From Escherichia coli (lineage in GTDB: Bacteria > Pseudomonadota > Gammaproteobacteria > Enterobacterales > Enterobacteriaceae), in NCBI RefSeq assembly GCF_044324875.1, contig NZ_CP172185.1: a stretch of DNA of 64,000 nt. One strand, written 5' to 3'. Positions 55,974 through 56,201 of this stretch are shown one piece after another. The translations under genes were made by a program, and so were the position numbers. How positions within the stretch are numbered: position 1 is the first letter of the stretch; each line of letters opens with the position of its first letter. Under the pieces are notes generated by a model that saw only the letters and a program-made list of their open reading frames with translations, did no database searches and was not told where the DNA came from.

Positions 55974-56134
55974 TTTCTTTTCCTGTTCAGTGTTGGTTGC
56001 ACCCCACAAAGTTGCTGCAACGGCTTCACTATAAATTTAAAATTCTGTTCTTTCTGTAACGCCTAAATGGCCGCTACATCGTTCGATTAACTTGTTCTAC
56101 CCGGCGCTAGATTTAAGTTTATGACACCATAAAG

Positions 56135-56182
56135 TGAATCGCCACAGGTTTAATAGACTGAATCGCCACAGGTTTAACAGAC
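56135..56182. repeat. 2 x 24-bp tandem direct repeat
   Basis: TGAATCGCCACAGGTTTAATAGAC / TGAATCGCCACAGGTTTAACAGAC, between the hsdM start and the IS911 right end. Confidence 0.6.
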
Positions 56183-56201
56183 ACCTCAGAGTCATTTAAG
56201 A

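Follow-up and report, generated by a model that had tools for sequence, protein, structure and literature searches.

The window, by which we mean the whole stretch of 64,000 nucleotides of Escherichia coli DNA that was analysed, carries the genes of a type I restriction-modification (R-M) system on its minus strand, and upstream of hsdM a short direct repeat separates the operon from fragments of insertion sequences (IS). The features are as follows.

45294 to 56134, minus strand: acquired hsd segment (hsdR, a DUF4268 gene, hsdS, hsdM and the remnant of a WYL gene), by BLAST against Vibrio gigantis plasmid p1
53550 to 55973, minus strand: hsdM, methyltransferase subunit of the type I R-M system, about 807 aa (Pfam HsdM_N and N6_Mtase; RefSeq annotation of identical DNA)
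55974 to 56086, minus strand: native intergenic region between the WYL gene and hsdM, 113 nt, conserved with the Vibrio operon with few substitutions
56087 to 56134, minus strand: remnant of a WYL-domain regulator gene, last 15 codons (LYGVINLNLAPGRTS) and stop, by alignment to V. gigantis p1
56135 to 56158, plus strand: copy 1 of the repeat, the isolated nucleotides 1-24 of the left terminal inverted repeat (IRL) of an ISEhe3-like IS, with the T allele at nucleotide 19 (23 of 24 bases shared with the IS of phage SfIV)
56159 to 56204, plus strand: copy 2 followed by a leader of 22 nt, together nucleotides 1-46 of an ISEhe3-like left end (designated IS-B below)
56174 to 56202, plus strand: promoter-like site TTAACA-17-TAAGAT inside the IS left end (consensus scan, 9 of 12 positions matched)
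56202 to 56689, minus strand: right-end fragment of an IS911/ISEc52-like element, 488 nt, with its right inverted repeat (IRR) tip at 56202 (Pfam rve domains; 98.6% identity to an ISEc52-family element)

That there is a 24-bp tandem repeat upstream of hsdM was confirmed with Tandem Repeats Finder, which reported an array at 56135-56182 (period 24, 2.0 copies, 95% matches, score 89), and with a pattern search allowing up to 3 mismatches, which returned no others besides these two in the 64 kb, where 100 shuffles gave an expectation of 0. Copy 1 (TGAATCGCCACAGGTTTAATAGAC, 56135-56158) and copy 2 (TGAATCGCCACAGGTTTAACAGAC, 56159-56182) share 23 of their 24 bases; the earlier note had called them perfectly conserved, although its own text already gave T/C at one position, and of the span 56010-56201 that it assigned to the repeat just 48 nt are occupied by it. 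Its distance of about 160 bp to the start of hsdM agrees with the 161 nt measured to the ATG (55973, minus strand). The array is bordered by a G before and an A after, which differ from the last (C) and first (T) base of the unit, so the phase of the repeat unit is unambiguous. The IS911 end that had been placed next to the repeat is an IS3-family end of IS911-like type (reading TGAAGTGGTCAAC...) that begins at 56202, 19 nt past the repeat; the 98.6% identical element is annotated as ISEc52 family by PGAP and has a left end that looks IS911-like. The TGA at 56202-56204 forms both the last three nucleotides of the remnant that contains copy 2 and the first three of this next IS, and can be assigned to neither alone.

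The cassette lies in a dense mosaic of IS fragments, to which also belong an IS30-like transposase ORF (HTH_38 and rve domains) and an IS3-type orfA fragment at 43598-44969, between an IS629 copy and a 159-nt intron stub. At 56689/56690 a group II intron (Rfam domain at 56690-56776, minus strand; reverse-transcriptase and maturase domains) interrupts the IS911/ISEc52-like fragment, which continues at the hsdR side (45165-45293), where it is preceded by just 159 nt of the intron 5' end. The IS fragment of the window is in this way split at the homing site of the group II intron and its halves flank the hsd cassette (45006-45293 and 56202-58958), whereas in phage-plasmid L005 (6408-7025) the fragment is uninterrupted and lies on the cassette's other side, downstream of hsdR; this opposite placement implies that cassette and IS are circularly permuted. 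Of the exons flanking the right intron copy, the 3' one is IS911-like but the 5' one is IS629, and the split IS and mixed exons suggest either a circular intermediate or a tandem duplication followed by recombination between intron copies. Copies of an IS629-like element were found at 49605-50914, 51527-52837 and 42291-43600, with a partial one at 58959-59754. Two 100% identical copies in inverted orientation break hsdS (49592-53543), the piece between them (about 51444-51529) aligning to the Vibrio hsdS in reverse, so that the R-M system of the strain from which the window derives is probably inactive; in NZ_CP033635.1 hsdS is intact.

Identity of the repeat unit

When phage records were compared with the repeat region, unrelated phages showed short stretches of 100% identity to it. 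The one in Shigella phage SfIV immediately precedes a gene annotated 'ISEhe3 orfA', and ORFs 23 and 24 are described in the SfIV paper as ISEhe3 OrfB and OrfA; the name ISEhe3 is used here on the authority of that record and paper, and not of an ISfinder comparison. The SfIV ORFs contain the Pfam domains HTH_Tnp_1 (orfA, 2.3e-19) and rve (orfB, 3.2e-32), and full copies in RefSeq are annotated as 'IS3 family transposase, programmed frameshift'. The first bases of the SfIV element are TGAATCGCCACAGGTTTAACAGACACCTCAGAG and its opposite end is an imperfect inverted repeat, ...CTCGGAAGTGTCTAGATTATCTGTGGCGATTCA. The full element is 1,229 bp long and its terminal inverted repeats have arms of 34 nt that are 76% complementary (TGAATCGCC.../...GGCGATTCA), with TG...CA ends; target duplications were seen for 18 of 34 full copies with distinct flanks (3 bp in 16 cases and 4 bp in two).

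The stretch 56159-56204 is identical to nucleotides 1-46 of the SfIV element (46/46), and a longer form of the remnant found in phage-plasmids is identical to nucleotides 1-60 (60/60). Of 5,426 complete E. coli genomes, 1,194 contain the same left end, with 1,648 occurrences between them, and plasmids of Klebsiella, Escherichia, Enterobacter, Citrobacter, Pantoea and other genera contribute 1,553 occurrences. It is close to certain that the repeat unit is the IRL of this common IS3-family element. Judged by these matches, copy 2 is the true start of a truncated IS left end and copy 1 an extra copy of nucleotides 1-24 alone. The window holds left-end tips only, with neither a transposase gene nor a right end. 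Whereas ordinary copies of ISEhe3-type elements such as that of SfIV are single-tipped, the one found here shares their left end over nucleotides 1-46 and has an additional tip of 24 nt. We also considered a derivation of copy 1 from the right end, as in the junction of an IS circle or dimer, and rejected it: the IRR reads TGAATCGCCACAGATAATCTAGAC, and copy 1 has the IRL-specific GGTTTAA.

The hsd operon and its former upstream region

On V. gigantis plasmid p1, hsdM, hsdS, the DUF4268 gene and hsdR are found at 94-95% identity, as cargo of a Tn7-like element; BLAST aligned 45294-49604 of the window at 95.4% and 53584-56136 at 93.7%. In Vibrio an intact WYL gene encoding 307 aa (Pfam WYL, E = 1.3e-14), at 12414-13337 of the aligned p1 record (L052), lies directly upstream of hsdM. 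The homology ends at 56136, at the first bases of copy 1 and inside the WYL gene, so that the repeat abuts the right edge of the segment common with the Vibrio operon. The rest of the WYL regulator gene was removed at the IS junction, and the scar marks the lost upstream regulator of the cassette. A close relative of the WYL gene also stands in front of other operons of defence type, both in an SXT-like element of E. coli and on a Shewanella plasmid. WYL regulators upstream of defence operons are presumably comparable to BrxR/CapW; the native Vibrio context, with the WYL gene directly before the operon, resembles that arrangement, whereas here the gene was lost at an IS and the repeat itself is unrelated to it. 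The proposal that the repeat formed part of the original cassette boundary thus holds for its position, exactly at the right limit of the Vibrio-shared segment, but not for its nature, since it is IS-derived DNA and not part of the cassette proper. In this respect it resembles the solo IS ends and IS scars that border acquired cassettes, where short IS remnants likewise mark the cuts from former neighbours, with the difference that the scar is doubled here; the WYL gene has been lost on its one side, and the other is taken up by an IS911-like fragment.

A role of the repeat as an operator or other regulator-binding site, or as a promoter element, for transcription of hsdM and hsdS had seemed attractive, because operators often take the form of direct repeats placed some 160 nt ahead of the operon and the arrangement is 100% conserved in dozens of E. 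coli chromosomes and plasmids. That conservation, however, reflects the recent common descent of the whole segment. In the alignment of V. gigantis p1 to the window no repeat was found upstream of the hsd operon, which is 94-95% identical; the earlier note had named homologous hsdM upstream regions as the place to look and the absence of the repeat there as evidence against this reading. Moreover, the same sequence is an IS end that recurs at thousands of unrelated sites, some 1,650 of them in E. coli genomes and some 1,550 in plasmids. The consensus scan of 55850-56350 gave no promoter-like site facing hsdM on the minus strand; the site TTAACA-17-TAAGAT points into the IS and away from hsdM, and is probably the IS's own orfA promoter, to judge from its match to the consensus. 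Rfam at the gathering threshold (44500-60000) returned nothing at 56135-56204, the only hits being ALIL pseudoknots and the group II intron domain. Finally, one natural variant of the locus is missing a copy and another is mutated. We therefore regard a regulatory function as highly improbable. From the comparison and the consensus scans we infer that the repeat today is a non-functional scar with no role in hsd regulation, which could at most still bind the transposase of resident copies of the ISEhe3-like IS.

Occurrence and origin of the doubled end

The tandem was found beside hsdM in 56 E. coli records and in about 30 plasmid records, and scans of E. coli genomes and plasmids detected the tandem form only beside this hsdM. 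A scan of metagenomes gave only the hsd-linked tandem, with both types of junction, and no further cases. In genome contigs there were no matches to the exact tandem pattern and 19 to a gapped pattern, all of them unrelated short tandem repeats in other phyla. Apparent partial 'tandems' among E. coli/Klebsiella phage matches (H110, H117, H118, H205 and H206) proved to be ordinary single tips with chance matches in the flank.

Most of the tandem-bearing plasmids are SSU5-like phage-plasmids. In these, the IS remnant extends to nucleotide 60 and is followed by a truncated SPFH/lipoprotein gene of the phage backbone; in the chromosomal form, including the window, the remnant stops at nucleotides 43-46 and the IS911-like end follows. 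Comparison of L001 (8307-8498) with phage Cyrano (2350-3180) shows that in the phage-plasmids the hsd cassette has taken the place of the 3' part of an SSU5-type SPFH/stomatin-like gene, together with one or more genes downstream of it; what is left of the SPFH gene is a lipoprotein-like stub of 63 aa.

How the tip came to be doubled can be approached from the alleles and boundaries of the two copies. The boundary of the repeat unit coincides exactly with nucleotide 1 of the IS. The T at nucleotide 19, by which copy 1 differs from copy 2, also starts other IS copies (tips ...GGTTTAATAGACACCTCAGAG) in at least three flank contexts and is a natural allele; one of these contexts is a viral contig of 113,250 bp that also carries the tandem and has the same length as a tandem-bearing plasmid. 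Moreover, a 20-nt extra tip (TGAATCGCCACGGGTTTAAC) was found directly before an IS left end on a Leclercia plasmid (NZ_CP152490.1, 4452-6952 in reverse-complement coordinates) and on an unrelated viral contig (IMGVR_UViG_2731957811_000001). In the Leclercia plasmid the extra tip has G at nucleotide 12 and the IS has A, both of which are common alleles. The two loci have unrelated left flanks and show 6 differences in 209 positions between their IS alleles; in each, nucleotides 187-189 are where the IS is interrupted or the contig stops, the interruption in Leclercia being an insertion of the ISEc52 family. Because the unit starts at the IS tip, the mismatch is a natural allele and analogous extra tips occur elsewhere, we favour nested insertion over a local duplication: with a probability of roughly 0.7, the doubling arose when one IS copy inserted within an earlier copy's left end and a deletion followed.

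In detail, a copy with the T allele (IS-A) would first either have inserted at the 3' end of the WYL gene that precedes hsdM or have caused a deletion reaching up to there. A copy with the C allele (IS-B) would then have inserted after nucleotide 24 of the left end of IS-A, in the same orientation, making copy 1 the surviving tip of the older IS-A. Recombination between the offset copies would have left one IS behind an orphan tip, and a deletion would have removed nearly all IS DNA, the product being 24 + 60 nt fused to the truncated SPFH gene in the SSU5-like phage-plasmids. In the lineage of the window, the IS911-like end would then have been joined at nucleotides 43-46 of the remnant. For an intermediate, this scheme predicts a right junction in which the IS right end ...GTGGCGATTCA is followed by a 3-bp duplication and Vibrio-type WYL sequence upstream of ...CACTTTATGG (gene strand). 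Neither an intact IS-A nor a nested IS-A::IS-B was found at the hsd locus, and, with the right ends gone, no target duplication is readable there. The thought that the remnant served as a surrogate end for the IS911-like element is unsupported: compared by eye with the left end of IS911, the junction at nucleotides 43-46 showed no resemblance to it.

A single tip that underwent a 24-bp duplication by slippage and one C-to-T change gives the same sequence. Such a local origin, in which slippage or unequal exchange doubled the first 24 nt of a single remnant, would be in line with the general frequency of short tandem duplications and with plasmid pM160133_p3 (NZ_CP022167.1), which has a single copy with both junctions identical to those of the tandem form and so demonstrates a 24-nt change of copy number at this very site. 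Over 1,900 bp of the adjoining hsdM sequence, however, this plasmid shows no difference to one tandem-bearing contig and a single difference to another, and its more distant relatives all have the tandem. The nesting of pM160133_p3 among tandem-bearing relatives implies that the tandem is ancestral and the single copy a secondary loss of 24 nt, and not the ancestor. A random duplication would also need to start exactly at nucleotide 1 of the IS, its mismatch happens to be a natural tip allele, and the 20-nt analogues likewise start at the tip and differ by a natural allele. We consider a local duplication possible but clearly the less probable origin. Together with extra substitutions in copy 1 and the leader at another locus (L157), the loss of a copy in pM160133_p3 indicates that the repeat is unconstrained.

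The 20-nt cases also bear on whether a double tip might have a function, either as an outer transposon end that mobilises double-tipped elements or the hsd segment, or as an extra transposase site that modulates activity. Two loci whose flanks are unrelated have the same 20-nt tip in front of an IS left end, as would be the case if a double-tipped element moved as a unit, and the hsd segment occurs in chromosomes as well as phage-plasmids with IS ends at both borders. Nevertheless, the Leclercia composite has no flanking target duplication, there is no matching IRR near the hsd segment in the window or the plasmids, copy 1 at the hsd locus decays by point mutation and deletion, and the IS911-like and intron sequences offer a better account of how the hsd segment moved. 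A functional double tip is therefore improbable. The suggestion that the repeat is a recombination site can be upheld in a loose sense, as its unit is a terminal inverted repeat and hence a substrate of an IS3-family transposase.

Possible insertion into an own end

Insertion beside the inverted repeat of a resident copy is known for IS911 and IS30; it joins tip to tip and gives only inverted IRL-IRR junctions (PMC9333248). The nested insertion proposed here is similar in that one copy lands at the end of another copy of the same IS. It differs in that the junction is a direct IRL-IRL one and the incoming copy begins within the target inverted repeat, after 20 or 24 nt. With this direct and internal arrangement, it is not the IR-targeting reaction of IS911 and IS30, and nested insertion has against it that the known reaction predicts no hot spot at nucleotides 20-24. 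Among viral contigs, the IS's own IRL made up 2 of 105 distinct left flanks of ISEhe3-like elements, which a landing of one copy at the end of another would explain, and no IRR-IRR tandems or abutted IRR-IRL junctions of these elements were detected. A target-site consensus ('AC' before the insertion point) as the cause of the choice of nucleotides 20 and 24 was dismissed, as there is just a weak A/T enrichment at positions -2 to -5. Tandem tips are rare, with three contexts in all collections scanned, and the two 20-nt cases may not be independent if a double-tipped element moves as a unit. We therefore put forward only as a speculation, and a rather doubtful one, that ISEhe3-like elements prefer to insert in their own IRL after nucleotide 20 or 24 and in the same orientation, giving double-tipped copies that are perhaps mobile as units. 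If true, such self-end targeting would differ from the inverted, tip-to-tip type of IS911 and IS30 and would be a small addition to what is known of target choice in the IS3 family.

The repeat is an ordinary, doubled scar of a catalogued IS. For annotation this means that it should be labelled as the remnant of an IS3-family end, and not as a regulatory or recombination signal of hsd. Its value lies in what it tells about the hsd cassette, which matches the WYL-regulated defence operon of a Tn7-like element of Vibrio and is by now spread over both E. coli chromosomes and SSU5-like phage-plasmids: the repeat dates and delimits the segment.
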